Shown in pieces: positions 38,570-54,846 of a stretch of 64,000 bases of DNA (position 1 is its first letter; each line of letters opens with the position of its first letter). The notes beneath the pieces were generated by a model. That model searched no databases. It was not told the origin of the DNA and saw only the letters and a program-made list of their open reading frames with translations. Source of the DNA: a virus. Lineage: Duplodnaviria; Heunggongvirae; Uroviricota; Caudoviricetes. Location: the IMG/VR virus record IMGVR_UViG_3300008108_000023, positions 1 through 64,000 of that record. One strand, written 5' to 3'. The position numbers and the translations under genes were made by a program.

Positions 38570-39694
38570 TTATTCTTCTTCATCTTTTCGATAACTTTCC
38601 AAGAGTTCCTCCCCTGAAAGTGTACCGTATTTATTTACAATTTTTTCGGTGTCTATTTCAACATTCATCATGTGATGAACATTATTTAATTCTTCGGCTA
38701 ATGATAAACTATCACTAATCACTTTAACGATTTTATATGGGTCCGCGTGTGATGCTGGTCTCCTGTCTTCAAGATAACCCTTCCATGTCTCACCAACGGA
38801 TTTTGGTACACGGATAGATGCACCTCTGTCTGAGACACCCCAACTAAATTTATCAATAGATTGTGTCTCAAAATGACCTGTTAATCTCAAATGGTTATCA
38901 GAACCATAAGAGTCAATATGTTCTTGTGTTCTTGATTCAAAAGACCTAAAAATTGCATTGAAGTATTGTTCACCACCCTCTTCTCTCATTTTTTGATTTG
39001 AGAAATTTGTATGTAAACCTGAACCGTTCCATTCTCCGTGGGTCATCGGTTTGGGATGTAACTCAATAGAACGACCATATTTCTCAGCAATTTTATGTAA
39101 AAAATATCTACTCATCCATAAATCATCAGAAGCGGCAATTTTACCTGTTGCAAAAATTTGGTATTCCCATTGACCTAATGCAACCTCTGAATTGGTTCCC
39201 TCCACATTGATGTCATATTTTAAACACATGTTCAAATGTTCATCAGAAATATTTCGACCAACAATATGTCCACCTACACCACAATAATAAATTCCTTGAC
39301 CGTCAATGATACCATTTCTTTCAAATCCAAGAATTGGATTATTATGTGAAGAACGAATAAAATATTCCTGTTCAAATCCAACCCAAAAATTTACATCTTC
39401 CTCACCTACTTTTGCTCTATGATTTGATGGATGAATTTCATTATTACCATCTAAAACCTCACATAATACATATACTGTATCAAGTGAACTATTTGTATGA
39501 TATAATTTTACTGGCTTAAGATAACAATCTGAAAAGTTACCTTCCGCTTGTTTAGTTGAGCTTCCGTCAAACCCCCAATTGGGGATGTGTTTCAATTCAA
39601 ATGGTGCCGGTAGGTCCACAATTTTTATTTTACTTCTGAGATTTGGCTCAGGGGAATACCCATCAAGCCATACGTATTCTACTTTTGTTTTCAT
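38570..39694 (-). CDS. glnA: glutamine synthetase, type II (eukaryote-like GS)
   Basis: GS signature WGFDGSSTKQAEGNFSDCYL and ATP-site KPMTHGEWNGSGLHTNFS, plus RGASIRVP; the 374-aa length fits GSII rather than GSI/GSIII. Confidence 0.85.
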   Translation of the reverse strand: MKTKVEYVWLDGYSPEPNLRSKIKIVDLPAPFELKHIPNWGFDGSSTKQAEGNFSDCYLKPVKLYHTNSSLDTVYVLCEVLDGNNEIHPSNHRAKVGEEDVNFWVGFEQEYFIRSSHNNPILGFERNGIIDGQGIYYCGVGGHIVGRNISDEHLNMCLKYDINVEGTNSEVALGQWEYQIFATGKIAASDDLWMSRYFLHKIAEKYGRSIELHPKPMTHGEWNGSGLHTNFSNQKMREEGGEQYFNAIFRSFESRTQEHIDSYGSDNHLRLTGHFETQSIDKFSWGVSDRGASIRVPKSVGETWKGYLEDRRPASHADPYKIVKVISDSLSLAEELNNVHHMMNVEIDTEKIVNKYGTLSGEELLESYRKDEEE

Positions 39695-40678: not shown

Positions 40679-41533
40679 TTATTCTTCAAACATTACCAGT
40701 TGTTTCTTTTGGTTATCATAATCAATCAATCTCTGTTGAGATATCTTTGTGTAAGATTCTGATAACTCAAAACCAATATAATTTCTATTCAGCTTCTTAG
40801 CTGACAAAGCGGTGGTTCCACTTCCTGAAAAACAATCAACAATCAGGTCATTTTGATAGGAAAGTATTTTTATTGCTTTCATTGGGATGTCCATGGAGAA
40901 TGTGGCTTTAGTTAAAGATTTTGTGTCGTTGAAGTATTTCCATTGACCAAAGACTAATTCCATGAATTCGTTTTTGTCTTTATCTGAATAAACCCTTTTG
41001 TTTTTAAAATTACCTTCCTCGTTTTCGACCTCAATCTGATTATAAGACCATTGAGATATACCTTTTTCTTTCTTTTTGTAATCTTTCTTATATGCAAGAA
41101 TTACACATTCTTTTGGATTGTATATGTATGGTGATGATGGTGACATCCAAGAACCCCAAGCGGTTGTTTTAGAACGGTGTGGAGAATCCTCCTCTAAGTC
41201 CACAACACCAAAGAATCCAAAACCAATCTCTTTCATCATCTGCCAATATTCAGATACTAAGAAAATTCTCCCACCTCTTTCTCTAACGTTTATTTCATAT
41301 GGTATATTCAAGGCAATTCTACCATCATCTTTTAATGTACGGTAAACTTCGGATAACCATTTCTTACACCACTCAAAATACTCATCCATCGGAGCATCGT
41401 CTTTGTGCACATCATAACTAATACCGACATTGTACGGTGGACTCGTAACAAAGAGGTCTACAGTACCGTCATTTAACTCCTTAAACAGTTCTAAGCAGTC
41501 ACCCTGATAAATTTTATTCATTTCCATTGACAA
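40679..41533 (-). CDS. beta-class DNA methyltransferase (N4-cytosine/N6-adenine; SPPY)
   Basis: Motif IV DLFVTSPPYNVG N-terminal and motif I DCFSGSGTT C-terminal (PF01555-like order). Confidence 0.8.
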   Translation of the reverse strand: MSMEMNKIYQGDCLELFKELNDGTVDLFVTSPPYNVGISYDVHKDDAPMDEYFEWCKKWLSEVYRTLKDDGRIALNIPYEINVRERGGRIFLVSEYWQMMKEIGFGFFGVVDLEEDSPHRSKTTAWGSWMSPSSPYIYNPKECVILAYKKDYKKKEKGISQWSYNQIEVENEEGNFKNKRVYSDKDKNEFMELVFGQWKYFNDTKSLTKATFSMDIPMKAIKILSYQNDLIVDCFSGSGTTALSAKKLNRNYIGFELSESYTKISQQRLIDYDNQKKQLVMFEE

Positions 41534-41614: not shown

Positions 41615-41800
41615 ATGGGATGCGGATGTAAAAAAAGAAACCAACCTGTTAGTAATCAAACGGTAAACATTCAACTAACCGAAGGTGGTTCAACACCTCC
41701 ACAGGAGATTACAATTATGGAACAACAACTTGACCAAATCATAAAAAAGGTTGAGGAGATTAACAATCAAACTAACGAAGAAAACACAGAAGGACAATAA
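41615..41800 (+). CDS. small protein with MGCGC N-terminus
   Basis: 61-aa ORF followed by a clear terminator hairpin. Confidence 0.4.
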   Translation: MGCGCKKRNQPVSNQTVNIQLTEGGSTPPQEITIMEQQLDQIIKKVEEINNQTNEENTEGQ

Positions 41801-41804
41801 ATTG

Positions 41805-41840
41805 TATCGGACAGTCTAATAAATTGTCCGATATTTTTTG
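41805..41840 (+). terminator. rho-independent terminator (TATCGGACA / TGTCCGATA stem + T-run)
   Basis: 9-bp stem with 11-nt loop immediately after the stop of 41615..41800, followed by TTTTTTG. Confidence 0.6.
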
Positions 41841-42077
41841 TCTTTTATAATATATATAAATTTATATACTTATATTATGCCTAAACAACAAACAAAACTA
41901 ACCAGCGTTAACATCATAGATGATGTTTATAAAAGATTTAAGATAAAAAGTGTAGATGGTTCAATCAATCTACAAAAATTAGTAAACCGAGCTCTTGACC
42001 TATATAACACTAGAGAAGATTTTAGAAAACAAATTGATAATCACAACGGTCTTGCACCAAACGGTTCCAAATTTTAA
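41838..42077 (+). CDS. hypothetical protein
   Basis: 79-aa ORF immediately upstream of the glycan operon. Confidence 0.4.
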   Translation: MSFIIYINLYTYIMPKQQTKLTSVNIIDDVYKRFKIKSVDGSINLQKLVNRALDLYNTREDFRKQIDNHNGLAPNGSKF

Positions 42078-42126
42078 GTTGTGAATTTTATTTCTTATAT
42101 TATCATCAATATTTTAAAACAAAAAA

Positions 42127-43584
42127 ATGATTACAATAGGTTACAGTACAAGAGAGTCCAACCCAAAATTTCAAGAATATTTAAAAAAAACTTGTGGACA
42201 CCCCAAAGTTCAAGTTATTGAAAAAGTAAACAATGGTGAAAAAAGTCTTTCACAAACTTACAATGAAATTATTCAAGAGTCGATTCATGATATTGTCGTA
42301 CTTTGTCATGATGACATTTACTTTAATACGACTTCGTGGGGTAGAAAATTAGTCAAACATTTTGAAGAATCTGACTACGGGATTCTCGGTGTTGCCGGTA
42401 CAACCAATATTCATGAGAGTGGTAGGTGGTGGACAGATAATACCAAAATGGTTGGTATTGTTAATCATGAAAATGAGGGTAAAAAATGGGAATCGAGATA
42501 TGCAAATGGAATCCCAAATTCAATTCACGAAGTTTGTTTAGTGGATGGTTTATTCATTGGAATCCACAAAAACAGAATAAAACACACTTTTGATGAGTCA
42601 GTACCGGGTTTTCATTTTTATGATATGGTATTCTGTACTAGCAATCACTTAAGTGAGGTAAACATCGGTGTTATATACAACATAAGAATCACTCACAAAT
42701 CAATCGGAATGACCAATGATTCTTGGGAAAAGAATAGGGAATTTTACATTGAAAAATTTAAAGAGAACCTACCAATTAATATAACACCAAAAATTGATTA
42801 TGACATAACCAAACCAAAACAGTTTAAAGATAAATTTAATTTAATAGTTCAAACATCAAACGATAATGAAAATTTAATTCAGTTTTTTGAAAACATAAAA
42901 AAATTACCAGTGTTTGATAGTTTACAGATTTCACTCATCTCGACGGATACCAATATAGACAATATTAGAGAATTTGAATCTGAAAATATTAAAATTTACG
43001 AGGGTTTTTTTGATACATTAAATAAAAACTTATCAGTACTGAAATGGGATGAATCGTTTATGGAATCAAAAACAGATTTGTTATTTTTCAGTAATGATAC
43101 TGTTACCGTATTGAACGACGTTTTCTCAAGTATGTATTCAATATTTAAGAGTGAAAAAAATACTTTTGGGTGCGTCTTTCCTACAGTATTAGAAAACGAC
43201 CGAACAATTTTTTCAAATGGATTGGATATAGTTCAAAACAACGAACAGTTCAATTTAATTTTTAAAAACAAATCATCTTTTTTCAATATTTTACACGGAC
43301 ACTTTCCAAACAATTTTGGTAGTATTAGTGACTTTTTTGCCACTACATCTACAAATTTAAAAATGATTGATTGGTTTGATATTAATTTAGAAACATCAAT
43401 TTATAACTTAGATTTTGCGTTGAAAACTTTACTTAAAAAACGTAAAACATTCATTGACACAAACAGTGTGGTAATGATTGATATGGCATCAAAATTTGAA
43501 AAGGTTGATGTTGAATTAAAACAAGTCTTAGGTCAGTACATAAACTCACCTGAAATTAGAAAAAATATCAAACAATTAAGATGA
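42127..43584 (+). CDS. glycan-operon protein 1 (possible glycosyltransferase)
   Basis: 485-aa first ORF of the plus-strand operon; VLCHDDIYF DxD-like motif; weak. Confidence 0.55.
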   Translation: MITIGYSTRESNPKFQEYLKKTCGHPKVQVIEKVNNGEKSLSQTYNEIIQESIHDIVVLCHDDIYFNTTSWGRKLVKHFEESDYGILGVAGTTNIHESGRWWTDNTKMVGIVNHENEGKKWESRYANGIPNSIHEVCLVDGLFIGIHKNRIKHTFDESVPGFHFYDMVFCTSNHLSEVNIGVIYNIRITHKSIGMTNDSWEKNREFYIEKFKENLPINITPKIDYDITKPKQFKDKFNLIVQTSNDNENLIQFFENIKKLPVFDSLQISLISTDTNIDNIREFESENIKIYEGFFDTLNKNLSVLKWDESFMESKTDLLFFSNDTVTVLNDVFSSMYSIFKSEKNTFGCVFPTVLENDRTIFSNGLDIVQNNEQFNLIFKNKSSFFNILHGHFPNNFGSISDFFATTSTNLKMIDWFDINLETSIYNLDFALKTLLKKRKTFIDTNSVVMIDMASKFEKVDVELKQVLGQYINSPEIRKNIKQLR

Positions 43585-44360
43585 TAAAAATTGTATCGGG
43601 ATTTACAGAAAAAGGTGGTTCTACCACTTTTTTTATAAACTTAACAAATTTCTTAAATGAAAATGGTATTGATTGCACATTTTACGGTAATCAGAATTAC
43701 CATTTAGACAAATGTAAATCAGGGAACATTGAAAAAGATTTAAAGTATGAATCTGATGATATTGTAATTACCCATTTTTTACAACTACAGGAAAGACCAC
43801 CTGTTAAAAAAGTTATTTTGTCTTGTCATGAAAAATGGTGGTTCCCTGTTGGTAAAATTAAACAGTATTGGGACCTGTGCGTGTTTTTACATGAAGAGCA
43901 TCGAAAATATCACTCGGATTACAGGGGTGATTATGTAATAATACCAAACATCAAAGAAAATTTAATTATTTCAAATAAAGAGCTGGTAAGAAATATTGCA
44001 GGAATTATTGGTACAATTGAAGACAGAAAACAGACCCATGTGTCAATACAAAGAGCATTAAAAGACAGGTGTGAAAAAATCTATTTGTTCGGTCACATCG
44101 GTGACCAAAACTATTTTGACAAATTGGTAAAACCTTTAATGAATCCAAGAGTAATTCATTACGGTCACACCACCAATAAACAAGAAATGTACGATATGAT
44201 TGGTAAGGTATATCACTCATCAAAGGGTGAGGTTGCTTGTTTGGTTAAAGATGAATGTTATTTAACCGGTACAGAGTTTTATGGTAATGAAGAGACTATG
44301 AATGAAGTTTCTAAATTAAGTAACGAAGAGATATTAACACTTTGGAAAAACATATTTTAA
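43581..44360 (+). CDS. glycan-operon protein 2
   Basis: 259-aa ORF, ATGA overlap with upstream gene. Confidence 0.5.
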   Translation: MIKIVSGFTEKGGSTTFFINLTNFLNENGIDCTFYGNQNYHLDKCKSGNIEKDLKYESDDIVITHFLQLQERPPVKKVILSCHEKWWFPVGKIKQYWDLCVFLHEEHRKYHSDYRGDYVIIPNIKENLIISNKELVRNIAGIIGTIEDRKQTHVSIQRALKDRCEKIYLFGHIGDQNYFDKLVKPLMNPRVIHYGHTTNKQEMYDMIGKVYHSSKGEVACLVKDECYLTGTEFYGNEETMNEVSKLSNEEILTLWKNIF

Positions 44361-44361
44361 A

Positions 44362-45084
44362 ATGAAGATACACGCACATATACTGTCATGGAATGAAGAA
44401 AAAATATTACCATTCACATTGGATTACTATAGTACAATCTGTGAAAAAATATTCATATACGATAATATGTCAACGGACTCCTCTGATGAGATTTATAAGA
44501 GGTACCCAAAAGTTGAGGTTATTAAATGGGATAGTGGTAATGAAATAAATGAAATTAATTACGTAAACATTAAATCCGAAGAGTATAAAAAAAGAAGTAG
44601 AGGTCAGGGTGTTGATTGGGTTATAGTTTGTGACTGTGATGAGTTTATATACCATGAAAATCTTATGGATAAACTTCAAGAGTACAAAGAAATGGGTATA
44701 ACCGTCCCAAGAATAGACGGTCACGACATGGTTAGTACTGAATTTCCAATATACGACGGTGAATTCATTACAACAAAAATTAAAACAGGTTCACAAACGT
44801 ATGAACCAATGTGTAAAAATATAATTTTTCATCCTGATTTAGATATAAAATACGGCATTGGTGGTCACAGTTTTAATTCTGTTGATGGTAAATTTTCGGA
44901 TGAGCGGGAAATAAAACTTCTTCACTATAAATTCTTGGGTAAAGACTACGTGAAGAACATTTACATTTCAAGAGCAAAGAGATTGTCATCGTTCAATAAA
45001 CAACATAAATTCGGTGAACATTATTTTAATTTACCATTCAATTACATGGACAGCATGTTAAAAGAAAATTATCAAGTTATATGA
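44362..45084 (+). CDS. glycosyltransferase-like (GT-A, DxD)
   Basis: ILSWNEEKILPF...IYDNMSTD...VCDCDEFIYHE resembles Glyco_tranf_2_4-type GT-A proteins. Confidence 0.55.
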   Translation: MKIHAHILSWNEEKILPFTLDYYSTICEKIFIYDNMSTDSSDEIYKRYPKVEVIKWDSGNEINEINYVNIKSEEYKKRSRGQGVDWVIVCDCDEFIYHENLMDKLQEYKEMGITVPRIDGHDMVSTEFPIYDGEFITTKIKTGSQTYEPMCKNIIFHPDLDIKYGIGGHSFNSVDGKFSDEREIKLLHYKFLGKDYVKNIYISRAKRLSSFNKQHKFGEHYFNLPFNYMDSMLKENYQVI

Positions 45085-45902
45085 GGAAAATACTTATATC
45101 GGATTTTACCATTAAAGAAGTACCTCACGGTGGTTCTGAATGGGTGAATCAAGTTTTAATTGATAGATTTAATCTTGAGTTTGAATATTCAAACCAAGTC
45201 AAGTCATTTGATTACAACGCCCTGTATATTATATCAAATATTTCTTTGATGAACCCAAACTTGGTTAATCAAATACAAAATTTGAACTACGTCATTATTG
45301 AAAACGATTATAAAATATGTGCAAGTAGACACCCATGGAGATATACCGACAACATAATTCCGATTGAGGAAAGAACCAACTATTCTCTTTACCGGAATGC
45401 AAAAGCGGTATTTGTTCAAACAACCGACCACATGAACGTTTATCTTAAAAACGATGTTGTTGCTAATTTTATAAATCTGAATAGTTCGATATGGTCAAAT
45501 GAGGACTTAGAATTATTGAGGAATTTAAATAAATCCAACAATGTTAAAAACGACAAATATTCTGTTTACTATACAAATAATTGGATAAAGAACACCCAAG
45601 GTAGTCTGAAGTATTGTTCTGAAAATAAATTACCGGTCCATATTCTTAAAGAATCTAAAGACAGAGTTGAATTTTTAAGTAATATGGCCAAATGTAAAGG
45701 TATTGTGTTTTTCCCGATAGCAAGAGAAACTTTTTGTAGACTGGTTGTTGAGGCAAAATGTTTAGGTTTGGAAGTAATAACGACACAAAATTATGGTGCA
45801 AGTTTAGAAGAATGGTTTAATAGGTTATCAGGTGATGAATTAATTGATTTCTTAGAAACTAACACTTTAAAAAATTTAGAAATCATTTCAACTTATATAT
45901 GA
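45081..45902 (+). CDS. glycan-operon protein 4
   Basis: 273-aa ORF, ATGA overlap at both ends. Confidence 0.5.
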   Translation: MRKILISDFTIKEVPHGGSEWVNQVLIDRFNLEFEYSNQVKSFDYNALYIISNISLMNPNLVNQIQNLNYVIIENDYKICASRHPWRYTDNIIPIEERTNYSLYRNAKAVFVQTTDHMNVYLKNDVVANFINLNSSIWSNEDLELLRNLNKSNNVKNDKYSVYYTNNWIKNTQGSLKYCSENKLPVHILKESKDRVEFLSNMAKCKGIVFFPIARETFCRLVVEAKCLGLEVITTQNYGASLEEWFNRLSGDELIDFLETNTLKNLEIISTYI

Positions 45903-46891
45903 TATTATTTTGTTACGGCACAAGACCTGAGTATATTAAAATAAAAAAATTAATAGAAATGTGTGGGGAAAGTATTCCCCATAAAATTTTATATGTTACC
46001 CAACACAAAGATATTGTATTGGGTGATTTTGATTATAAATTATCCATTGATGATACGTGTGAAAATAGATTGGATAGTATTATGTCATCCGTATTTTTAA
46101 ATTTTAAAAAAGAATTTTTGGAAGGGGTTACACATATACTTATCCAAGGGGACACCGCAACCGCTCTTTCATTATCCCTAATAGGATTACACCATAAAAA
46201 AGAAGTGATTCATTTAGAAGCGGGATTACGGACATATGACTACAATCACCCTTACCCCGAAGAAATGTATCGGCAGTTAATTAGTAGAATTTCAAACTAT
46301 AATCTTTGCCCAACAGAAAGTAACAAGATGAACTTAGAAAATGAAAAAGTTCAGGGTAAAAATTTTGTAGTTGGCAATACCGTATTAGATAATCTTAATA
46401 AAGAAAATATTACATACGAAAATAAAGTCTTAATCACTTTACATAGAAGAGAGAATCATGAGATGATGTCGGAGTGGTTTGATGTTATCAATCGATTAGC
46501 AAAGAATAATCCTGAATTAAAATTCATTCTTCCAATACACCCAAACCCAAACGTCATAAAACACAAACATATATTGACACATGTTGATGTTATTGAACCA
46601 TTAACCCATGATAAATTTATTGAGGAATTCAAATCCTGTAAATTACTAATTTCAGATAGTGGGGGTGTTCAAGAAGAGGCGTCGTTCCTAAATAAGAAAG
46701 TTATTGTATGTAGAGAAAAAACTGAGAGACCTGAGTCCTTGGGTAAAACGTCTTTTATATGTAAAAAACCCATTGACTTAGAAGGTATTTTTTACGATAT
46801 TATTAACGATTTCCAAACAGAATATGATTGTCCTTTTGGTGATGGTAATTCTTGTGAAAGAATCATTGAAATATTTAGAAAAATTGTATGA
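45899..46891 (+). CDS. UDP-N-acetylglucosamine 2-epimerase (WecB/NeuC family)
   Basis: FCYGTRPEYIKI, HLEAGLRTYD, DSGGVQEEA, ERPE and FGDGNSCERI motifs collinear with E. coli WecB. Confidence 0.85.
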   Translation: MILFCYGTRPEYIKIKKLIEMCGESIPHKILYVTQHKDIVLGDFDYKLSIDDTCENRLDSIMSSVFLNFKKEFLEGVTHILIQGDTATALSLSLIGLHHKKEVIHLEAGLRTYDYNHPYPEEMYRQLISRISNYNLCPTESNKMNLENEKVQGKNFVVGNTVLDNLNKENITYENKVLITLHRRENHEMMSEWFDVINRLAKNNPELKFILPIHPNPNVIKHKHILTHVDVIEPLTHDKFIEEFKSCKLLISDSGGVQEEASFLNKKVIVCREKTERPESLGKTSFICKKPIDLEGIFYDIINDFQTEYDCPFGDGNSCERIIEIFRKIV

Positions 46892-47616
46892 GTATAACGG
46901 TAATATTAAATGGGTATAAAAGACCACATGTTCTCCAAAAACAATTGGAATCAATTAGAAATCAAAGTGTCCAACCCGAATCAATTTTATTTTGGCAAAA
47001 TTCTGGTTCTCAATTTGATGAGGGACTAACCAAAGATTTAATTCACGCATCTTGTAATAGTAATTTAGGTGTGTGGGCAAGATTTGCATTTGCTTTAAAT
47101 GCCAACACAGAATATATTTGTGTTTTTGATGATGACACAATACCGGGTAAACTATGGTTAGAAAACTGTCTAAACACCATGAAAATTCAAGAAGGTTTAT
47201 TAGGAACTATCGGTGTAAAATTTCACACAAAAAACTCTTATTGGCCAGCAACAAGAGTCGGTTGGGACCAACCTAACGAAGAAATTGAAAAGGTCGACAT
47301 TGTTGGTCACTCGTGGTTCTTTAAAAGAGAATGGTTATCGATATTTTGGAGAGAATTACCTGAAATCAATCAGAGTAAATTAGTTGGTGAGGATATGCAC
47401 TTTTCATATACATTACAGAAATACGCAAATATCGGAACTTACGTTCCTCCCCATCCTAAAGAAAATAGAGAAATGTGGGGTAGTATACCAGAATATGCAT
47501 GGGAACATGGAACTGATTCCAACGCAATTTCCGTAAATCATTCAAATATGAATTTAATGGGTGAAGTTTACCGTGGGTATGTAAATAAAGGATTTAAGAC
47601 AATATTAAATGATTGA
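46888..47616 (+). CDS. glycosyltransferase-like (DxD)
   Basis: ITVILNGYKRP...IRNQS and FDDDTIPG motifs. Confidence 0.55.
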   Translation: MSITVILNGYKRPHVLQKQLESIRNQSVQPESILFWQNSGSQFDEGLTKDLIHASCNSNLGVWARFAFALNANTEYICVFDDDTIPGKLWLENCLNTMKIQEGLLGTIGVKFHTKNSYWPATRVGWDQPNEEIEKVDIVGHSWFFKREWLSIFWRELPEINQSKLVGEDMHFSYTLQKYANIGTYVPPHPKENREMWGSIPEYAWEHGTDSNAISVNHSNMNLMGEVYRGYVNKGFKTILND

Positions 47617-48328
47617 AAAGTATATTGAAGATTTTAATTCGTTTTGGGAAAAGATAGATAGTCGAACTAACTTTTCTTTTGTTAGATATGCCGATGGTGA
47701 AGTGATGTTAATGAATAATTCACCGATAGAAAAGAATACACAAGCGTATCAAAACGATAAATGGTTTTCGAGTGGGGGACAAACCAAATTAGGTGTGGAT
47801 TTAAATGAATGTATAGGGTTGAACGACCCAAATTTTTATTTTGCAATATCCTCCAAAACTGATAGTATTAGAGACTATAATTTTTTATATGATAGAATAC
47901 AAAATAAATCAAACATTACATTTGCTAACCTATGGATTAACGCAAATTACAAAGAAAATATATCAAGAATAAGAAATATAAATCGAGATGTTGTTTTAAT
48001 TTGTAATGAAAATTGTGATTTAAAAAACATACCATTTAGTGTATCAGAATTTGTACCGTTCCCTAATGATTGTGTAAACTATTGGGAAGAACATAGAGAT
48101 TCGTTTTTAGAAAAAATATACAATGTTTCTTCAAAATATAAAGATACTTTATTTATCGTATGTTGTGGACCAACATCTGCTGTTATCATAAAACATATGT
48201 TTACAAATAATAGTAATAACACTTATATTGATTTTGGTTCCGCATTAGATGTATTCATACATAATAAAATAACTAGACCATACATGTATGAAGGGTCACA
48301 ATATCATAATCACATATCAAAATTTTAA
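47609..48328 (+). CDS. glycan-operon protein 7
   Basis: 239-aa ORF. Confidence 0.5.
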   Translation: MIEKYIEDFNSFWEKIDSRTNFSFVRYADGEVMLMNNSPIEKNTQAYQNDKWFSSGGQTKLGVDLNECIGLNDPNFYFAISSKTDSIRDYNFLYDRIQNKSNITFANLWINANYKENISRIRNINRDVVLICNENCDLKNIPFSVSEFVPFPNDCVNYWEEHRDSFLEKIYNVSSKYKDTLFIVCCGPTSAVIIKHMFTNNSNNTYIDFGSALDVFIHNKITRPYMYEGSQYHNHISKF

Positions 48329-48334
48329 TTCAGT

Positions 48335-48925
48335 ATGAATAATGATTTTTGTGTCATAGTACAAGGACCTTCAGACTACGTTAAAGAATTAAAAAACGCT
48401 TGGACTGGTTATGATTTGATTTGGTCAACATGGCAAGGTGAAGAATCAAAATACGATACTAATGATGTTGTCTTATTCAACAGTATTCCACACGATAGGG
48501 GTGTACAAAATATAGCACTACAAAAAATATCAACTTTGAATGGAATAATGAAAGCCAAAGAAATAGGTTACAACAGAGTCCTTAAATGGAGAAGTGATTT
48601 ACTACCATCTAATGCAAATAGATTAGTTTCCACATTTAAAAAAGAGTGTGTAAATTTTTTGACTTGGCATAATGAAGGAAAATATTTTGTTGATTATTTT
48701 GTGGAGGGTGAAATAGATACGGTGTTTGATATTTGGAATGTATCTACCATACACGATGAGTATTCGGAAAAAATAATCACGGAAAATATAATATCACTTA
48801 ACTATAAAAATATAAACTTTATGGGTGGCGAATTAAGTAATGATAATGAAATTTTTTGGTTAAAACGAAATATTAATTTGTCCACATATAAAGACGCACC
48901 ATGTTATAGTATGGTGGTGATTTAA
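48335..48925 (+). CDS. glycan-operon protein 8
   Basis: 196-aa ORF. Confidence 0.5.
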   Translation: MNNDFCVIVQGPSDYVKELKNAWTGYDLIWSTWQGEESKYDTNDVVLFNSIPHDRGVQNIALQKISTLNGIMKAKEIGYNRVLKWRSDLLPSNANRLVSTFKKECVNFLTWHNEGKYFVDYFVEGEIDTVFDIWNVSTIHDEYSEKIITENIISLNYKNINFMGGELSNDNEIFWLKRNINLSTYKDAPCYSMVVI

Positions 48926-48936
48926 AAATTATAAAA

Positions 48937-49671
48937 ATGATAGATAATTCAAAATTTATTGACGACGCATTTACTCAAGATGAATTAAATAGGGGTGCCT
49001 TTACCGATTTGAATGGTAGATGTCCATTATGGACAACAAAAATGATTAATGTTATAAAAGATAAAATTGACTTTAATGATGTCAACACAATATTAGATAT
49101 TGGGTCAAGAGATGGTTGCCAAAGTTTAGAGTTAAATAGATGGTTTCCACATGCTAAAATATATGCGTTTGAACCAGTAAAAGAAAACTACGAATTTACA
49201 GTTAAGAACGTTGAGAAAATTAATAACATAAAAGTTTACCAATACGCAATAAACAATTACAACGGTAAAACTAAATTTTACGAAGTTTATAATGGAAATG
49301 TGGGTGCCAGTTCTTTATTACAGACAACAAACCACTGGCGTTCATCTCAGTGGGCCCAAAAGGAAACTGAGGTTGACTGTATTGTTCTTAGTGATTGGTT
49401 AAAAGAAAATGATATTAAAAGTGTTGATTTGATTTGGATGGATGTTCAAGGTGCAGAAAATATCGTATTAGACTCTCTAAAAGAATATTTAAATGATGTA
49501 AAAATAATAACCACCGAAGTAGGGTTACAGGAATTATATCGTGGTTCTACAAGTAAATCTGAACTAGATGAAAAACTAAATAGGTTTATACCAATAGACG
49601 AGTCGCCAGAATCTTCAAACACAGAAATGGATGTGGTTTATATCAACAAAAATTTAACACCTTATGGATAA
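48937..49671 (+). CDS. FkbM-family SAM-dependent methyltransferase
   Basis: LDIGSRDGCQSLEL...IYAFEPVKENYEF...NGNVGASSL matches the FkbM domain. Confidence 0.7.
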   Translation: MIDNSKFIDDAFTQDELNRGAFTDLNGRCPLWTTKMINVIKDKIDFNDVNTILDIGSRDGCQSLELNRWFPHAKIYAFEPVKENYEFTVKNVEKINNIKVYQYAINNYNGKTKFYEVYNGNVGASSLLQTTNHWRSSQWAQKETEVDCIVLSDWLKENDIKSVDLIWMDVQGAENIVLDSLKEYLNDVKIITTEVGLQELYRGSTSKSELDEKLNRFIPIDESPESSNTEMDVVYINKNLTPYG

Positions 49672-50365
49672 TAAAATTTGTTACGTTACTTATACAAATT
49701 CAAAATGTTCAGATATTTTGGATATGTTCTTGTTAGAACAAAAAAAGTACACAAACTTACCGATGTATTTTATTACAGATGTAATGATACCCGAGCAAAT
49801 TTGTTTTTTATATGAAAATCAAGAACCTTATTATGAATCATGGTTAAAGTGTTTATCTTCAATACCATATGACTATTTTATATACTTACAAGAAGACTTT
49901 ATTCTTTATAACAATGTCAGTCATGATAAAATTTTTAATTACCTCGATTTTTTACATGATAACCAAGAATATTCGTTCATTAGATTGTTAAAATCGGGGT
50001 CTGTTAAAGATAAAAAAATTTATGAGACCTTATATGAAATAGAATCCGACAATAAAGATATATTTTCTATGCAACCAACTATTTGGAAAAAAGATGATTA
50101 CATTAAAATCATGAAAGGTACCAAAAATAATATGTGGTTAGAGAATGAAACATATAGAAATTTTATGATAGAAAACAACATCAAAGGTTTATATCATTAC
50201 GATGGTGAAAACAAAAGGGGGTTGAATCATTTTGATAGTTCTGTTTATCCATATATAGCAACGGCTTTAGTTAGAGGTAAATGGAATTTATCTGAATACC
50301 CTAATGAACTCTCTCCATTAATAAATGAATATGAAATAAACGTAAATGTTCGGGGGATACATTAA
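49664..50365 (+). CDS. glycan-operon protein 10
   Basis: 233-aa ORF. Confidence 0.5.
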   Translation: MDNKICYVTYTNSKCSDILDMFLLEQKKYTNLPMYFITDVMIPEQICFLYENQEPYYESWLKCLSSIPYDYFIYLQEDFILYNNVSHDKIFNYLDFLHDNQEYSFIRLLKSGSVKDKKIYETLYEIESDNKDIFSMQPTIWKKDDYIKIMKGTKNNMWLENETYRNFMIENNIKGLYHYDGENKRGLNHFDSSVYPYIATALVRGKWNLSEYPNELSPLINEYEINVNVRGIH

Positions 50366-50367
50366 TA

Positions 50368-51042
50368 ATGAAAATTGTTCTATCTTTTTACACCAACAAT
50401 AAATTTAGTAACACCGTTCAAAAATTAATCGGATATTATAATTCACGTGGTTTCAATGATATCCGAGGATTTAAATCTGAAGATGTTAAGAAAGGTATTT
50501 TTTATGAAAACCATAAAGAAATATTAGATTGTGAAACGGGTGATGGATTTTGGTTGTGGAAACCAAAAATTATTTTAGATATTTTGAATGAATTAGAAGA
50601 TGGGGATGCATTAATTTATACCGATGCCGGTGATTTAGTTGATGTTGATTATAATACGATTGCAAATTATTTGAAAGATAATGATTATTATTTTACAAAT
50701 TGGAATGGAAATCGTTGGCCTCAAAAAATATGTACAAAAAGAGACTGTTTTATCTTGATGGATTGTGATGAAGAAAAGTTTCATGAAACACCACAGATGG
50801 AAGCAGGATTTATCATCATTAAAAAAACCAAACAAATGATGGAATTTGTTCACGATTATTTTAAGTATTGTAGTATTAAACAGATAGTTGACAATGAACC
50901 AAATCAAATTGGTGAGAATTTTCCAAATTGGCAATTCCATAGAAATGACCAAAGTATATTAACTAACTTGGTTGTGAAACATAATTTAAAATTTGATTAT
51001 TGTCTCGATTATAGAATAAAATACAACGTATATATACCATGA
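50368..51042 (+). CDS. glycan-operon protein 11 (possible glycosyltransferase)
   Basis: 224-aa ORF; DGFWLWKP and YTDAGD motifs; weak. Confidence 0.5.
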   Translation: MKIVLSFYTNNKFSNTVQKLIGYYNSRGFNDIRGFKSEDVKKGIFYENHKEILDCETGDGFWLWKPKIILDILNELEDGDALIYTDAGDLVDVDYNTIANYLKDNDYYFTNWNGNRWPQKICTKRDCFILMDCDEEKFHETPQMEAGFIIIKKTKQMMEFVHDYFKYCSIKQIVDNEPNQIGENFPNWQFHRNDQSILTNLVVKHNLKFDYCLDYRIKYNVYIP

Positions 51043-51800
51043 AATTTATTGCATTAAATTATAATTATGACTTAAATAAAATGTCCCAAATCGGTCGGAA
51101 ATGGGCGTTTGATGTCTACAAAAATAAAGAGTTTATATCTGATTATTCATCAGCATCTTATGCTTCATTTATTGATAAGAATAGAAAAAGTATTTTACAT
51201 CTTTATACTGATGATGTTGAGGGTATGAAAGAAAAAATGAACAAGTATAACATTGACCAAGACAGAATTATTTATATTGATTACACGGAACAACTTACCA
51301 AATACAATGAAAGTCTTAATTATAGTTTTACAGTTTTAAATGATTTTATTAATTATGCAAAATCAGAAACTGAGTACACTGTAAAAATCGATAATGATTT
51401 ATTTTTTCATTCGGAATTACCACAAATTGATGATAATTCTATTATGGTTTGGAAGTATGAAAGAATCGTTAGGAATGGTGACCCGAGATGGGGTGAAATA
51501 AAAATATGTAAACAGGTTACAAATGATTTAGATTTTAAAATTTATAATTTAGGTATTTTTGGGTTGCCCGCGGATTACAATATTCACCAAGCAAAAAAAA
51601 TTATGGAAGATATGATATCGGTAGACATTTCAGATGTGACTGATACAGACTCGAAGATTTATCATTGTTGTGAGCAAACGGCAAATAATTGGATTTTTCA
51701 CAAAGAAAATTATAACGTGATTGAAACGTATAATTATGTTGACCACCTGTTTGATAGAAAAGGTGATTGTATAGAATTATCAAAATATCTTTTAAAATGA
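51039..51800 (+). CDS. glycan-operon protein 12
   Basis: 253-aa ORF. Confidence 0.5.
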   Translation: MKFIALNYNYDLNKMSQIGRKWAFDVYKNKEFISDYSSASYASFIDKNRKSILHLYTDDVEGMKEKMNKYNIDQDRIIYIDYTEQLTKYNESLNYSFTVLNDFINYAKSETEYTVKIDNDLFFHSELPQIDDNSIMVWKYERIVRNGDPRWGEIKICKQVTNDLDFKIYNLGIFGLPADYNIHQAKKIMEDMISVDISDVTDTDSKIYHCCEQTANNWIFHKENYNVIETYNYVDHLFDRKGDCIELSKYLLK

Positions 51801-52564
51801 AAACATCAGTAGTATTGACAATTCACAACAAGGAATTCTTAATGAACCAAGTGGTGAGTAACTTGGTAAATAATTTATCAGAACTGAATGACCAGATTGT
51901 AATAGTTTTTGATGGTTGTACAGATAATAGTGAAGGTATTGTTCGTGACAATTTAAAGAGAGTTAGTAATAAAAAAATTGATTACCTGTATGCCGACAAT
52001 GTTTTTGAAACCAAAGCAAATAATATTGGTCTAAAGTCTGTTATAAATGATTATGTGGTCTTAATCCAAGATGATATGGTTGTCACAGAAAAAGATTTTG
52101 ATAAGAGGATGTTGGAACCGTTCATAAAATATAGTGATGTGTTCGCTGTAACATCTTTTGTTGCTCACAATAACATCTATAATGAACAAACAAAACAAAT
52201 AAATTACATCGATATTGCACATAAAGATAACTCATCAAGAGATATTTTTTATGCTAGAGAATATGGTAACAGAGGTCCACTAATGTACAACTATAATGAC
52301 GTGGTCAAATTAAATTTTTTAGACGAATATTTTTCACCCCAAAATTATGATGATATGGATATGTCCATGAGAGCATTCAAAGAACTCGGAAAAGTGTCAG
52401 GTTTATATACGATAGATTATATTTCCGAACCTGGATGGGGGACCACTAGACAAAAAAATCAATCATTACATAATAATTTAGTTTACGTAAACGCAGCAAA
52501 AATACTTGAAAAACACAGGGATTTATTGTATAATAAAGACAAATATAAAGAGGATAGAGAATGA
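51797..52564 (+). CDS. family-2 glycosyltransferase
   Basis: MKTSVVLTIHNKE... GT2 N-terminus and LIQDDMV DxD; start chosen at the ATGA overlap (51797) rather than ORF-track 51767. Confidence 0.65.
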   Translation: MKTSVVLTIHNKEFLMNQVVSNLVNNLSELNDQIVIVFDGCTDNSEGIVRDNLKRVSNKKIDYLYADNVFETKANNIGLKSVINDYVVLIQDDMVVTEKDFDKRMLEPFIKYSDVFAVTSFVAHNNIYNEQTKQINYIDIAHKDNSSRDIFYAREYGNRGPLMYNYNDVVKLNFLDEYFSPQNYDDMDMSMRAFKELGKVSGLYTIDYISEPGWGTTRQKNQSLHNNLVYVNAAKILEKHRDLLYNKDKYKEDRE

Positions 52565-53178
52565 ATAATATAGAGCTAAAGACATTTATGATTAATCATA
52601 ATGTTAATATCCATGGTGTGATTCACGTTGGTGCACATTTTGGTCAAGAAGATGAAGTTTATAAGGAATTGGGTATTTCAAACAGAATATACTTTGAACC
52701 TCTATCGTCTAATTTTGAGACCTTAAAAGAAAAAATAGATGATGACGCAATTTTAGTTAAACTGGCGTTAGGTAATGAAAAGAGAAAAGTTTCTATGTTT
52801 GTAGAATCCTTTAATAAAGGTATGTCATCCTCAATATTAGAACCGAAATTACATTCTGTTCAATTTCCTCATATCGTTTTTGATTCTGTAGAAGAAGTTG
52901 AAATGGATAGATTGGATGATTTAAATTACGATTTTTCAAAATACAACATGATGAATATCGATGTTCAAGGTTTTGAATTAGAGGTTCTCAAAGGTTCCGT
53001 GAATACATTAATCAACATTGACTACGTTATTGTAGAAATAAACAGAGCCGAATTATATAAAGGTTGTCCACACTTTGATGAAATAAACAATTGGATGACA
53101 CATCATGGGTTTACCTGTGTTGAACAATTTTGGTGGGGTAATAATTTTGGTGAGGGATTTTTTAAAAAAATAAAATGA
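52561..53178 (+). CDS. FkbM-family SAM-dependent methyltransferase
   Basis: IHVGAHFGQEDEVY...IYFEPLSSNFETL...GMSSSI matches the FkbM domain. Confidence 0.65.
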   Translation: MNNIELKTFMINHNVNIHGVIHVGAHFGQEDEVYKELGISNRIYFEPLSSNFETLKEKIDDDAILVKLALGNEKRKVSMFVESFNKGMSSSILEPKLHSVQFPHIVFDSVEEVEMDRLDDLNYDFSKYNMMNIDVQGFELEVLKGSVNTLINIDYVIVEINRAELYKGCPHFDEINNWMTHHGFTCVEQFWWGNNFGEGFFKKIK

Positions 53179-54236
53179 AACGAGTATTAGTATTGGGTGG
53201 TGGCGGATTTATTGGTGGTCACCTAGCAAAAAGATTAAAAAATGAAGGAAACTACGTAAGAGTAGTTGATATAAAAAGACACGAATATTTTGATGAGAAA
53301 GACTTTTGTGACGAATTCTTAATATATGACCTTACGGACCCAAAAAACGTATCATCAGTAATGAGATTAGAAGAATTAAATGGTACGATATTACCGTTTA
53401 ATTATTACAAACAACCATATTCAACTGAGGTCCCATTTGATGAGGTTTATCAATTAGCTGCCGATATGGGTGGTGCTGGTTACATCTTCACTGGTGAAAA
53501 TGACGCGAATGTTATGCACAATTCTGCAATGATAAATTTAAATGTTGTAAATGAATCAGTGAAGACAAAAGTTAAGAAGATTTTTTATTCATCATCGGCA
53601 TGTATGTATCCTGAACACAATCAATTAGACCCTAACAACCCAAATTGTGAAGAATCATCAGCATATCCCGCGAATCCTGATTCAGAATATGGTTGGGAAA
53701 AACTTTTTTCGGAAAGGTTGTACTTGGCTTTTCACAGAAATCACGGTTTGGATGTTCGAATTGCTAGATTTCATAACATATTTGGTCCATATGGTACGTG
53801 GAAAGGTGGTAAAGAAAAAGCACCAGCAGCTATGTGTAGAAAAGTTGCCGAAATGTTAGACGGTGGAGAAATTGAAGTTTGGGGTGATGGTCAACAGACT
53901 CGTTCATTCTTATATGTGGATGAATGTGTTGAAGCGGTTTTAAGACTAATGAGACAAGACTCTTTTTTGGGTCCTGTAAACATTGGTTCTGAAGAGAAAG
54001 TAACAATTAATGATTTGGCTCAAATGGCTATAGATATTTCAGGTAAAGAAATTTATATCAGAAATATTGGTGGGGAAGAATTTAAACAGAAGTATGGATA
54101 TAAATGTCCTGTTGGTGTGAGGGGAAGAAATTCAGACAATAAATTATACCACGAAAAAATAGGTTGGGTTGTTAGTGAACCTCTGTTCTATGGAATGGAA
54201 AAAACCTATAAATGGATTAATAGTTTAGTTAAATAA
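53175..54236 (+). CDS. GDP-mannose 3,5-epimerase-like NAD-dependent epimerase (SDR)
   Basis: GGGGFIGGHL Rossmann motif; SSSACMYPE, RFHNIFGPYGTWKGGKEKAPAAMCRK, WGDGQQTRSF, VDECVEAVLRL, PVNIGSEEKV and GVRGRNSDN blocks closely parallel plant GME (as recalled). Confidence 0.8.
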   Translation: MKRVLVLGGGGFIGGHLAKRLKNEGNYVRVVDIKRHEYFDEKDFCDEFLIYDLTDPKNVSSVMRLEELNGTILPFNYYKQPYSTEVPFDEVYQLAADMGGAGYIFTGENDANVMHNSAMINLNVVNESVKTKVKKIFYSSSACMYPEHNQLDPNNPNCEESSAYPANPDSEYGWEKLFSERLYLAFHRNHGLDVRIARFHNIFGPYGTWKGGKEKAPAAMCRKVAEMLDGGEIEVWGDGQQTRSFLYVDECVEAVLRLMRQDSFLGPVNIGSEEKVTINDLAQMAIDISGKEIYIRNIGGEEFKQKYGYKCPVGVRGRNSDNKLYHEKIGWVVSEPLFYGMEKTYKWINSLVK

Positions 54237-54268
54237 AAAAGGGGGTTATTGACCCCCTTCTTTTTTTT
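54235..54268. terminator. strong bidirectional terminator (AAGGGGGT-TATTG-ACCCCCTT + T9)
   Basis: Perfect 8-bp G/C stem between the converging epimerase gene and the minus-strand glutaredoxin-like gene, flanked by A6 and T9. Confidence 0.75.
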
Positions 54269-54539
54269 CAATGTATTTTAATATAATTGCTAACGCCTCG
54301 TCGTCCCCATTAAAATCTTTTTCGGGACAAAAAAAGGGTCCTTTACCAGTGTCGTCTTTTTTAATGTAAAAGGCGGGTAAATATTCATTACCCGTTTGTT
54401 CAATTACTTTATTCCAAATCTCTTTATTCTTACCAACTTCAACTTCTCGGTAAGGTAATGATTCTTTTTGGAGTCTCTCTTTTAATCTTTTACAACCTCC
54501 ACAACCCTCAAGTGTAAATAGAAGTAATTCATTCGCCAT
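54246..54539 (-). CDS. glutaredoxin/NrdH-like redoxin (CGGC)
   Basis: LFTLEGCGGCKRLKERL: CxxC in thioredoxin-fold context, 97 aa. Confidence 0.5.
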   Translation of the reverse strand: MANELLLFTLEGCGGCKRLKERLQKESLPYREVEVGKNKEIWNKVIEQTGNEYLPAFYIKKDDTGKGPFFCPEKDFNGDDEALAIILKYIEKKEGGQ

Positions 54540-54540
54540 A

Positions 54541-54846
54541 TTATAAAGTGTTTAATATTTCTTTGTAAAAAGAATCGGGTCTAACACCTGATGTTCTTGA
54601 TACTTCGTTATTACCATTAAATATCATTACCGTTGGTACTGAACGTACCCCATATTCTTGAGAACCTGACATTTCAGAATCAACATTAACCTTGACGAAT
54701 TTAACATCAGGGTATTCGTGTTGTAGTAAATCTAATTTTGGTAATAACATTTTACATGGTCCACACCATTCAGCGTAAAAGTCGGCAAGAACTTTCTCAC
54801 CGTTTTGTTTCATTTCATTTAGTTTTTCAACTGTTACTAATTCCAT
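54541..54846 (-). CDS. trxA: thioredoxin
   Basis: Canonical WCGPC active site (FYAEWCGPCKM); 101 aa. Confidence 0.8.
   Translation of the reverse strand: MELVTVEKLNEMKQNGEKVLADFYAEWCGPCKMLLPKLDLLQHEYPDVKFVKVNVDSEMSGSQEYGVRSVPTVMIFNGNNEVSRTSGVRPDSFYKEILNTL

Follow-up and report, generated by a model that had tools for sequence, protein, structure and literature searches.

What a tailed phage gains from a 12-kb battery of enzymes that tailor, transfer and methylate sugars, and on which acceptor the resulting glycan is built, are the questions raised by the locus described here. It occupies positions 42127-54236 of a stretch of 64,000 nucleotides (positions 1 to 64,000 of the IMG/VR virus record IMGVR_UViG_3300008108_000023, Caudoviricetes; the whole stretch is called the window below) and consists of 15 contiguous plus-strand open reading frames (ORFs) of 196-485 amino acids (aa), designated g01 to g15. 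The original prediction, made from the letters alone, had read the region as a glycan-biosynthesis operon combining nucleotide-sugar tailoring with sugar transfer, and profile, structure and motif evidence agree with that reading. The best overall explanation is a glycan-assembly locus of a jumbo phage that glycosylates its own virion proteins; its enzymatic and architectural parts are held with high confidence, while the whole, with the virion as acceptor, is put forward tentatively, at somewhat less than an even chance.

Two genes of the locus are predicted to supply activated sugars. The protein g05 (45899-46891) matches Epimerase_2 (PF02350, 4e-60) and is most likely a non-hydrolysing UDP-GlcNAc 2-epimerase of the WecB type with UDP-ManNAc as predicted product: it scores 209.9 bits against the wecB model TIGR00236 (cutoff 210.15; the protein has 330 aa, the model 366 positions) and 37.7 bits against the NeuC model (cutoff 235.9), and an exact-protein look-up returned no record. 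At the conserved 3' end of the locus, g15 (53175-54236) is a predicted GDP-mannose 3,5-epimerase, matching the NAD-dependent epimerase family of short-chain dehydrogenases/reductases (SDR) in Pfam at 1e-40 and the Arabidopsis GDP-mannose 3,5-epimerase (AtGME, PDB 2c59) at 1.3e-87, with the next SDR class at about 1e-21. In the alignment, C143, Y172, K176 and K215 correspond to AtGME C145, Y174, K178 and K217, and g15 carries both the Cys/Lys acid-base pair and the Tyr-x3-Lys motif expected of such an extended SDR enzyme. At residues ~60-87 (window 53340-53440), following the NAD-binding strand, g15 has an insertion of ~16-28 aa that is lacking in its homologs in the related locus L003 and in the plant enzyme, and nucleotide similarity to relatives is interrupted there.

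Sugar transfer is represented far more heavily, and at least eight, and overall eight to eleven, of the 15 proteins are probable glycosyltransferases (GTs). The first of them, g01 (42127-43584; Glyco_tranf_2_5, 2.9e-24), is predicted with high confidence (pLDDT, the predicted local distance difference test, of 91) to fold into two GT-A-like domains, the N-terminal one (residues 1 to ~215) being well conserved with an invariant H61-D62-D63, and the C-terminal one (~237-485) less conserved and lacking a conserved DxD. Further GT-A enzymes of the GT2 type are g03 (44362-45084; PF13704 Glyco_tranf_2_4, 3.2e-15, with DCD at residue 91), g06 (46888-47616; PF00535, 1e-6, with DDD at residue 81) and g13 (51797-52564; PF00535, 1.9e-12). 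The start of g13 was set to the ATG at 51797 on account of its ATGA overlap with g12 and of the 255-aa gene called in the related contig L010. Two compact proteins, g02 (43581-44360) and g04 (45081-45902), are assigned at motif level as GT-B-like enzymes of the GT4 type from the position of an EX7E motif, invariant as E217-x7-E225 in g02 and as E216-x7-E224 in g04. An N-terminal KGGS motif is also present in g02, which returned no match in Pfam, NCBIfam or PDB and stays 63-88% identical where g01 falls to about 42-56%; g04 has a weak similarity to PF00534 (Glycos_transf_1; 0.0025) over residues 196-240, where its EX7E sits.

The remaining transferase candidates were approached through family alignments and predicted structures. 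The sequence orphan g12 (51039-51800) is assigned by its modelled structure as a retaining GT8-like glycosyltransferase, with a GT-A fold, a DxD motif and nearest structural neighbours in GT8, among them protein-glycosylating toxins of the GT8 type, glycogenin and LgtC. The probable GT-D-fold glycosyltransferase g07 (47609-48328) covers the full PF22882 GT-D-like profile below threshold (1.2e-4; NF040628, 1.4e-4) and appears to be a divergent allele, being only 46-48% identical to its counterparts in relatives. In g11 (50368-51042) we see a domain of a large, unannotated and undescribed family with 3,858 representative homologs and with the residues G58, G60, W64, K65, Y84, D86, R192, D194 and Q195 invariant; it is probably another glycosyltransferase, since larger proteins carry this domain joined to a GT11, GT25, GT15 or GT2 domain. 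A partial PDB match of g11 to the phosphodiesterase MJ0936 (2e-4 over 65 residues) was rejected as a sign of kinship.

Methylation is the predicted role of g09 (48937-49671; PF05050, 1e-19) and g14 (52561-53178; PF05050, 1.3e-16), two FkbM-family methyltransferases dependent on S-adenosylmethionine (SAM) that would O-methylate sugars; these distant paralogs are the only pair found, with none among the family-less ORFs. Two proteins remain. Pfam and NCBIfam gave no match for the window protein g08 (48335-48925), possibly WavE-like, since one member of its family matches PF07507 WavE at 1.6e-4; g10 (49664-50365), found in 13 of 79 surveyed loci, matches no Pfam, NCBIfam or PDB profile and aligns weakly with the g11 family in hhalign (E 0.0023, 12% probability). 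Neither g10 nor g11 could be aligned with g12 by hhalign, single-sequence PDB searches with g02, g04, g11 and g12 returned nothing meaningful, PDB searches with family profiles of g10, g11 and g12 no credible match, and NCBIfam added nothing for the seven ORFs without an above-threshold Pfam match. Thus the calls of UDP-GlcNAc 2-epimerase, SDR with GDP-mannose 3,5-epimerase likeness, paired FkbM enzymes and GT2 in the original prediction were borne out, the last for four ORFs, and its HMM check, under which the reading fails if the ORFs match no transferase or sugar-modifying families, came out in its favour. Its count of eight ORFs of no recognisable family, on the other hand, falls to the seven just mentioned at the Pfam stage and to g08 and g10 after the further work.

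The 15 genes are predicted to form a single plus-strand transcription unit. Nearly all ORFs of at least 120 aa elsewhere in the window lie on the minus strand, and GC skew and AT skew both reverse sign exactly across 42-54 kb. Ten of the 14 junctions overlap, eight by four nucleotides of the ATGA type and two by eight, and the other four are gaps of 1-11 nucleotides (g13 being counted from its ATG at 51797 and not from the TTG at 51767). The block is bracketed by terminator-like hairpins. On its left, a 12-pair stem followed by a T run (41804-41834, plus strand) is nearly invariant across five relatives; on its right, a bidirectional intrinsic-terminator-like hairpin (54239-54259), AAAAAAGGGGGTTATTGACCCCCTTCTTTTTTTT, is common to the locus and a convergent glutaredoxin gene and can be written as AAAAAAGGGGG-TTATTGA-CCCCCTTCTTTTTTTT, a 9-bp stem with five G-C pairs that stands between an A run and a T run. 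The left and right hairpins rank second and first, respectively, in a scan of 16 kb that returned 20 terminator-like sites against 6.0 +/- 2.8 in shuffled sequence. The plus-strand block in a minus-strand region, the mostly overlapping junctions, the upstream terminator and the strong bidirectional terminator at the end had all been recognised beforehand from the sequence, and they stand; the seventeen genes then counted become 15, seventeen being reached only with two small upstream ORFs, one of which lies before the upstream hairpin.

Equally informative is what the locus lacks. By a hydropathy threshold, none of the 15 proteins contains a membrane segment (highest 19-residue hydropathy, 1.51), and no priming transferase, flippase, polymerase, ligase or sugar-1-phosphate nucleotidyltransferase was found among the 15 genes. 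Because the last of these is missing, the locus must draw its sugar nucleotides from the host; it relies on host UDP-GlcNAc, GDP-mannose and SAM, and the earlier description of the pathway as complete-looking and self-contained has to be given up. The same absence extends across the lineage: among 870 proteins of 79 related loci none has two or more hydrophobic segments, and no priming enzyme, flippase, polymerase, ABC transporter or ligase was found. Of the 95 Pfam families hit, the 25 most frequent include none of the membrane-machinery families of O-antigen loci.

Comparison with close relatives points to an old locus with an exchangeable interior. An independent contig of 82.6 kb (L010) carries all 15 genes in the same arrangement at 97.9% nucleotide identity, so the arrangement is not an assembly artefact. 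In L010 and in the related loci L003 and L004 the locus occupies the same place, between an N6/N4 methyltransferase gene and glutaredoxin genes. Among close relatives g01-g06 are 83-99% identical and g15 79-84%, and the middle differs; among the five close relatives L003, L004, L006, L007 and L008, g11 and g13 occur in L007 only. The breakpoints of similarity are sharp and fall exactly on gene boundaries. Nucleotide similarity to L003, L006 and L007 stops at 47614, which is the stop codon of g06 (47614-47616), and g06 is the last gene of a conserved 5' core, with its stop codon as the recombination breakpoint. In L006, g01 is 99% identical yet the distal gene set is different, which argues for a recent exchange.

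The content of the exchanged region in these relatives deserves record. After g06, all five carry a gene for a metallo-beta-lactamase (MBL)-fold protein of 396 aa (L003 8221-9411) that is found neither in the window nor in L010. Within the glycan loci of L003 (11177-12352) and L004 (10572-11747) there is a RuBisCO large-subunit-like protein of 391 aa (PF00016, 6.9e-33), whose gene adjoins a nucleotidyltransferase and an ORF of 99-107 aa; further methyltransferases occur in both loci. One would not expect a RuBisCO-like enzyme in a phage sugar pathway, and its presence hints at sugar chemistry of an unusual kind.

Relatives of g01 were found on 474 IMG/VR viral contigs, at 42-94% identity across the viral lineage. 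For 79 of these loci, the ~10 kb downstream of g01 were surveyed by simple ORF chaining and single-linkage clustering, and most of them proved to be co-directional runs of 9-14 or more genes that begin with the g01-like gene. Only g01 is universal. The 870 proteins encoded downstream group into 173 clusters, of which 76 have a single member, and the cluster representatives match GT2 (14), FkbM (6), Epimerase (5), RmlD (4) and CmcI O-methyltransferase (3) families, together with GDP-mannose dehydratase, DegT aminotransferase, acetyltransferases, GT92 and GT11. One 270-kb contig has a fucosyltransferase/amino-sugar version of the locus (GT11, GT10, dehydratase, DegT and an RmlD-like reductase). 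The neighbourhoods of g01 also vary, the genes close by encoding PolB, dUTPase or a tail-fibre chaperone; in L011 and L012 g01 is immediately preceded by dUTPase/DCD genes, and L012 alone has a Peptidase_S74 gene ~7 kb upstream, besides a recorded WavE match. A scan of 185,579 species genomes for the g01 motif, based on exact peptide patterns, gave nine matches, all on contigs of metagenome-assembled genomes (L092-L100) labelled Methanobacterium, Thiomargarita, Parabeggiatoa, Competibacteraceae and Thiodictyon, which could be either mis-binned phage or true relatives in large sulfur bacteria.

Taken together, g01, joined in this sub-lineage by g02 and g04, forms a conserved, virus-specific anchor, and the genes downstream of it are swapped as whole-gene modules. 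The locus is therefore old, vertically kept and hypervariable in content, and not a recent horizontal insert, given its constant place in relatives and its lineage-wide anchor gene; this also disposes of the one circumstance of origin, a recent insert, that the original prediction had named as fatal to its reading.

The genome around the locus is that of a phage, as had been supposed. The flanks carry a phage-type helicase, a thymidylate synthase, two DNA methyltransferases, thioredoxin-like and glutaredoxin-like proteins, an AAA ATPase, a glutamine synthetase and an aminotransferase. At the left border stands an N6/N4 DNA methyltransferase (40679-41533, minus strand; PHROG 67, 7.8e-45), where L003, L004 and L010 likewise have a PF01555 gene; at the right border stand glutaredoxin-like and thioredoxin-like genes (54246-54846, minus strand; PHROG 22), with PF00462 and PF00085 genes at that position in the same three relatives. 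Against 50,697 deposited phage records, megablast found no match to the locus DNA, and the only flank match was a 150-bp stretch of thyA, 92% identical to Flavobacterium phage vB_FspM_immuto. The nearest relatives of the helicase, at 33-36% identity, are found in phages of Bacteroides, Chryseobacterium and Flavobacterium. GC content is about 31% in the window (0.28-0.33 in the locus, matching its flanks), and a Shine-Dalgarno-like core within 20 nucleotides upstream was seen for four of 50 likely genes, the upstream sequence being A/T-rich and G-depleted. From the helicase relatives, the thyA stretch, the GC content and the scarcity of Shine-Dalgarno cores, the host is probably a member of the Bacteroidota. 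A protein identical to g12 occurs in 76 blocks of the collection on contigs of up to 288 kb, and relatives of the locus lie on contigs of 270-340 kb; given the repeated g12 and the copy of the locus in L010, the source is an uncultured jumbo phage of roughly 290 kb that is seen in many samples. No integrase or lysogeny gene was found among the scanned window proteins (some small ORFs lay outside the scan), and no tRNA gene in the window.

From these elements a pathway can be proposed. UDP-ManNAc and GDP-L-Gal (or L-Gul) would be made from host pools, and sugars would be added stepwise by the GT-A enzymes g01, g03, g06, g13 and g12, the EX7E GT-B-like enzymes g02 and g04 and probably g07 and g11, with the two FkbM enzymes O-methylating the product to give a methylated hetero-oligosaccharide. 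Its inner part, the work of g01-g06, would be conserved and its outer part variable, such that related phages would bear different surface glycotypes. In the least certain step, the acceptor would be cytoplasmic and phage-encoded, the glycan being built on virion structural proteins before or during assembly.

The acceptor is therefore the point at which explanations part. The original prediction named virion proteins, host lipopolysaccharide (LPS) or capsule, and DNA as candidate targets; these remain the right ones, and the evidence ranks the virion first and DNA last. A conserved, phage-encoded acceptor is suggested by anchor enzymes that are kept across a deep viral lineage while the rest of the locus varies. 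The virion is tentatively favoured because the anchor is essentially absent from bacterial genomes, because no export or priming function occurs in any surveyed locus, and because there is precedent, tandem GTs with an O-methyltransferase being proven to act on mycobacteriophage capsid and tail tube and giant viruses using soluble enzymes. Several considerations weigh on the other side. The locus sits among DNA-metabolism genes, whereas the mycobacteriophage cassette goes with the structural module. The exact-motif genome scan could miss distant bacterial relatives of the PF13712 family. Most O-antigen GTs are likewise peripheral proteins without a membrane helix, and the missing membrane proteins are thus compatible with a glycan built on host undecaprenyl-linked intermediates and exported by the host. 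In Bacteroidota, protein O-glycans and LPS typically contain ManNAc derivatives and O-methylated sugars, so that remodelling or mimicry of host glycans fits equally well. The cyanophage literature, too, prefers host-surface modification, itself a hypothesis there. Such remodelling of the host envelope, in which soluble GTs and methyltransferases act at the inner membrane face on undecaprenyl-linked LPS O-antigen, capsule or O-glycan and host flippases and ligases export the altered product, would block superinfection, keep progeny from adsorbing to lysing cells or debris, or change how grazers recognise the cell. The analogous clusters of cyanomyoviruses are usually read in this way, and one of them has an epimerase 57% identical to g15; peripheral GTs require no membrane segment, the donor sugars and the methylation suit Bacteroidota surfaces, a variable centre could follow variable host acceptors, and the WavE likeness of one g08-family member and the WavE match in L012 point the same way. 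Nevertheless, we judge remodelling of the host envelope, the main rival, a possible, rather unlikely account: the 79 loci with their 870 proteins yielded no priming transferase and no flippase, polymerase, ligase or ABC transporter, an anchor GT kept throughout a deep viral lineage and essentially absent from bacteria is unexpected for a host-specific lipid-linked glycan, and for a phage with no integrase or lysogeny gene among the scanned proteins of the window a lytic cycle is short for replacing a surface layer.

The solubility of all the enzymes would also suit an acceptor of another kind, such as a free oligosaccharide, a glycolipid, a glycosylated small molecule or host proteins, serving takeover, defence evasion or osmoprotection. 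The RuBisCO-like protein, MBL-fold enzyme and nucleotidyltransferase of the relatives suggest unusual sugar or small-molecule chemistry, and g12 resembles protein-glycosylating GT8-type toxins and glycogenin; there is, however, no phage precedent for so large a dedicated pathway in such a role, and hypervariability is more typical of exposed surface structures, which makes this account improbable. Still less is to be said for glycosylation of hypermodified phage DNA, in which hydroxymethylated pyrimidines would carry the glycan and evade restriction. Phage GTs that add diverse glycans to DNA are known (Pyle 2024, as cited in PMC12619734), and the locus lies among nucleotide- and DNA-metabolism genes, with dUTPase/DCD genes just upstream of g01 in two relatives. 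Yet the thyA homolog scores as a genuine thymidylate synthase (TIGR03284, 305 bits; cutoff 108), no hydroxymethylase was found among the scanned proteins of the window (64 kb of a genome of ~290 kb), the two flanking DNA methyltransferases point to protection by methylation, and hypervariability is hard to square with the constraints of DNA polymerase and packaging. A set of 8-11 GTs, a GDP-mannose 3,5-epimerase and FkbM enzymes also goes far beyond any known DNA-glycan system, and we regard this explanation as very unlikely. The least credible of all is that the block is foreign to the phage, be it a bacterial O-antigen or capsule locus, a recent insert without a role in infection or an assembly chimera. 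The opposite strand and the bracketing terminators do give it the look of an island, but its GC content of 0.28-0.33 equals that of the flanks, independent assemblies have the same locus in the same place, the anchor gene stands on 474 viral contigs in varied neighbourhoods, and the membrane components that define bacterial loci are missing; insert and chimera were rejected on the GC match, the L010 copy and the lineage-wide anchor.

Should the virion indeed be the acceptor, a wider proposal follows, which we regard as possible and on the whole doubtful: that virions throughout a deep lineage of jumbo phages wear a coat of glycan specified by a hypervariable, O-antigen-like locus anchored by g01, so that these phages would exist as recombining "serotypes". 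Such a coat could be a determinant of host range or defence evasion, and it might serve as bait for glycan capture of the SusC/SusD type by Bacteroidota or as a mask against intracellular or extracellular recognition.

Upstream of g01 lie two small plus-strand ORFs that may bear on the regulation of the locus. The first, u1 (41615-41800), encodes 61 aa with a cysteine-rich N terminus (MGCGCKK), has no Pfam match and is 87-100% identical in the relatives L001, L003, L004 and L006; the second, u2 (41877-42077), is called as a 66-aa gene in L003, L004, L006 and L010, and the hairpin at 41804-41834 separates the two. Both are real genes, since they are kept in relatives and substitutions in the DNA alignment are codon-like. 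A weak, below-threshold similarity of u2 to the ribbon-helix-helix family PF23807 RHH_10 (E=0.0066) makes it a possible regulator. The gaps before u2 (41835-41876) and before g01 (42078-42126) are nearly invariant where the relatives' coding DNA differs by 15-20%, and may hold putative phage-specific regulatory sites. The exact 10-mer CTTATATTAT occurs in the whole window only at 41869-41878 and 42094-42103; with one mismatch allowed its frequency is at chance level, and the two exact copies alone stand out. Sigma-70-like sites were not enriched (97 against 97.8 in shuffles), nor was the Bacteroidota -7 motif TAnnTTTG, of which none lies upstream of the locus; with both scans and the one-mismatch scan of CTTATATTAT at chance, no promoter was assigned.

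Some of the surrounding genes merit mention in their own right. The thymidylate synthase (35307-36632, minus strand) has 441 aa where about 265-320 aa are normal; the TIGR03284 score identifies it as ThyA, with the matches falling in three to four separate stretches, which implies an insertion or insertions totalling about 110 aa or more. Also on the minus strand are a glutamine synthetase-like protein (38570-39694; Gln-synt_C, 3.6e-17, with an N-terminal domain), a PcfJ-like protein of 611 aa (31120-32955), a class I/II aminotransferase of 369 aa (14730-15839) and a protein of 442 aa (25502-26830) with a peptidoglycan-binding domain and a weak endolysin match.

The broader interest of the locus lies in the fact that large phages of aquatic bacteria repeatedly spend 4-5% of their genome on glycan synthesis, the first cyanophage examples being 20 years old. 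The present lineage provides a cleaner handle on what is glycosylated, with a single virus-specific anchor on hundreds of contigs and no membrane machinery, and the way in which near-identical phages trade their downstream genes bears the mark of diversifying selection acting on an exposed structure. Were the virion the acceptor, variable glycan coats would extend to tailed phages beyond the actinobacteriophages, with a bearing on host range, environmental persistence and the scoring of phage diversity; were it the host envelope, lytic infection would involve a large phage-driven rewrite of Bacteroidota surface glycans. Either way, the families of g12, g11, g02 and g04 lengthen the list of glycosyltransferases that await characterisation. 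That large phages can carry large glycan clusters is already known. Three things we have not found described: an architecture of anchor plus variable part, measured over a whole viral lineage; the swapping of modules at gene boundaries by near-identical phages; and, as a set, the tandem GT-A anchor, the compact EX7E enzymes, the GT8-like orphan and the WecB-type epimerase, the last being a rarity among cultured phages.

Among the closest known systems are the clusters of cyanomyoviruses for LPS or for cell-wall synthesis and modification (LPS/CWSM). Comparable clusters are carried by P-SSM2, S-SSM7, S-SCSM1 and S-SCSM2R, one of them with 13 GTs and 22 cell-wall genes, so that the original prediction overstated its case in calling such a cassette unusual in a bacteriophage. 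The run in S-SSM7 spans ~11 kb with three epimerases, a transferase, a methyltransferase, a UDP-glucose dehydrogenase and four to five GTs, and it contains a homolog of g15 at 57% identity. These clusters share with the present locus a length of ~10 kb or more, a large lytic phage as carrier, epimerases/dehydratases, many GTs, a methyltransferase and the lack of export machinery; the clustering of sugar enzymes with GTs that defines them is seen here as two epimerases, at least eight GTs and two methyltransferases in 12 kb. They differ in host phylum and phage lineage, and among g01, g05 and g15 only g15 has clear orthologs there. Its homologs occur in 84 Synechococcus phage records, the best full-length ones ~56-58% identical, and the S-SCSM1 enzyme has already been annotated as GDP-mannose 3,5-epimerase. 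No g01 homolog was detectable in the 50,697 deposited phage records. Homologs of g05 in cultured phages are limited to 19 records at 34% identity or less, with none in Synechococcus or Prochlorococcus phages; its cyanophage matches come only from freshwater phages of Microcystis, Aphanizomenon and Planktothrix (31-32%). An architecture of anchor, variable centre and conserved 3' epimerase, as seen here, was not found described for cyanophages.

The mycobacteriophages of clusters O and F offer a precedent for the proposed mechanism. Their tandem GTs and O-methyltransferase glycosylate capsid and tail tube subunits (PMC11600133 and PMC12619734, citing Freeman 2023), and soluble tandem GTs with an O-methyltransferase in a lytic phage are likewise found here, where the same mechanism is proposed. 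Their cassettes, unlike the present one, have 3-5 genes instead of 15, with no nucleotide-sugar tailoring enzymes reported, and they lie in or next to the structural module, while the neighbours here are DNA methyltransferases, thioredoxins, glutamine synthetase and thymidylate synthase. As to lineage, the moraphages are uncultured jumbo phages of 200-307 kb, mostly from freshwater and with predicted Bacteroidota hosts (Perez-Hernandez et al. 2025, PMC12619734); nine of 25 carry glutamine synthetase, four GT orthogroups belong to their core genome, and the paper devotes one paragraph to GTs without describing a glycan locus or its variability (PMC12619734). Glutamine synthetase, contigs of 270-340 kb, Bacteroidota signals and core GTs make the resemblance a circumstantial one.

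Two phage systems resemble the locus little. The temperate gtrABC/oac module of serotype conversion differs from a locus of 15 genes with no membrane proteins and with no integrase among the scanned window proteins, and the hydroxymethyl-pyrimidine pathway of DNA-glycosylating phages has no counterpart in a window whose sole thyA-family gene scores as genuine thymidylate synthase. The O-antigen and capsule loci of bacteria, by comparison, are similar in combining nucleotide-sugar genes, GTs and modifiers in one operon and in having conserved ends around a mosaic, recombining centre; unlike them, the present locus is virus-encoded and has no priming phosphoglycosyltransferase, Wzx/Wzy, ABC transporter, chain-length regulator or membrane protein, and its architecture is thus that of such a locus minus every membrane component. 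There is a likeness, too, to the giant viruses, in which virus-encoded soluble GTs, sugar-nucleotide enzymes and methyltransferases build chlorovirus capsid glycans and mimivirus fibril glycans independently of host export, although these are eukaryotic viruses and the likeness, at about 10% identity, does not go beyond the fold. The capsid glycans of chloroviruses combine a conserved core with strain-specific decorations.

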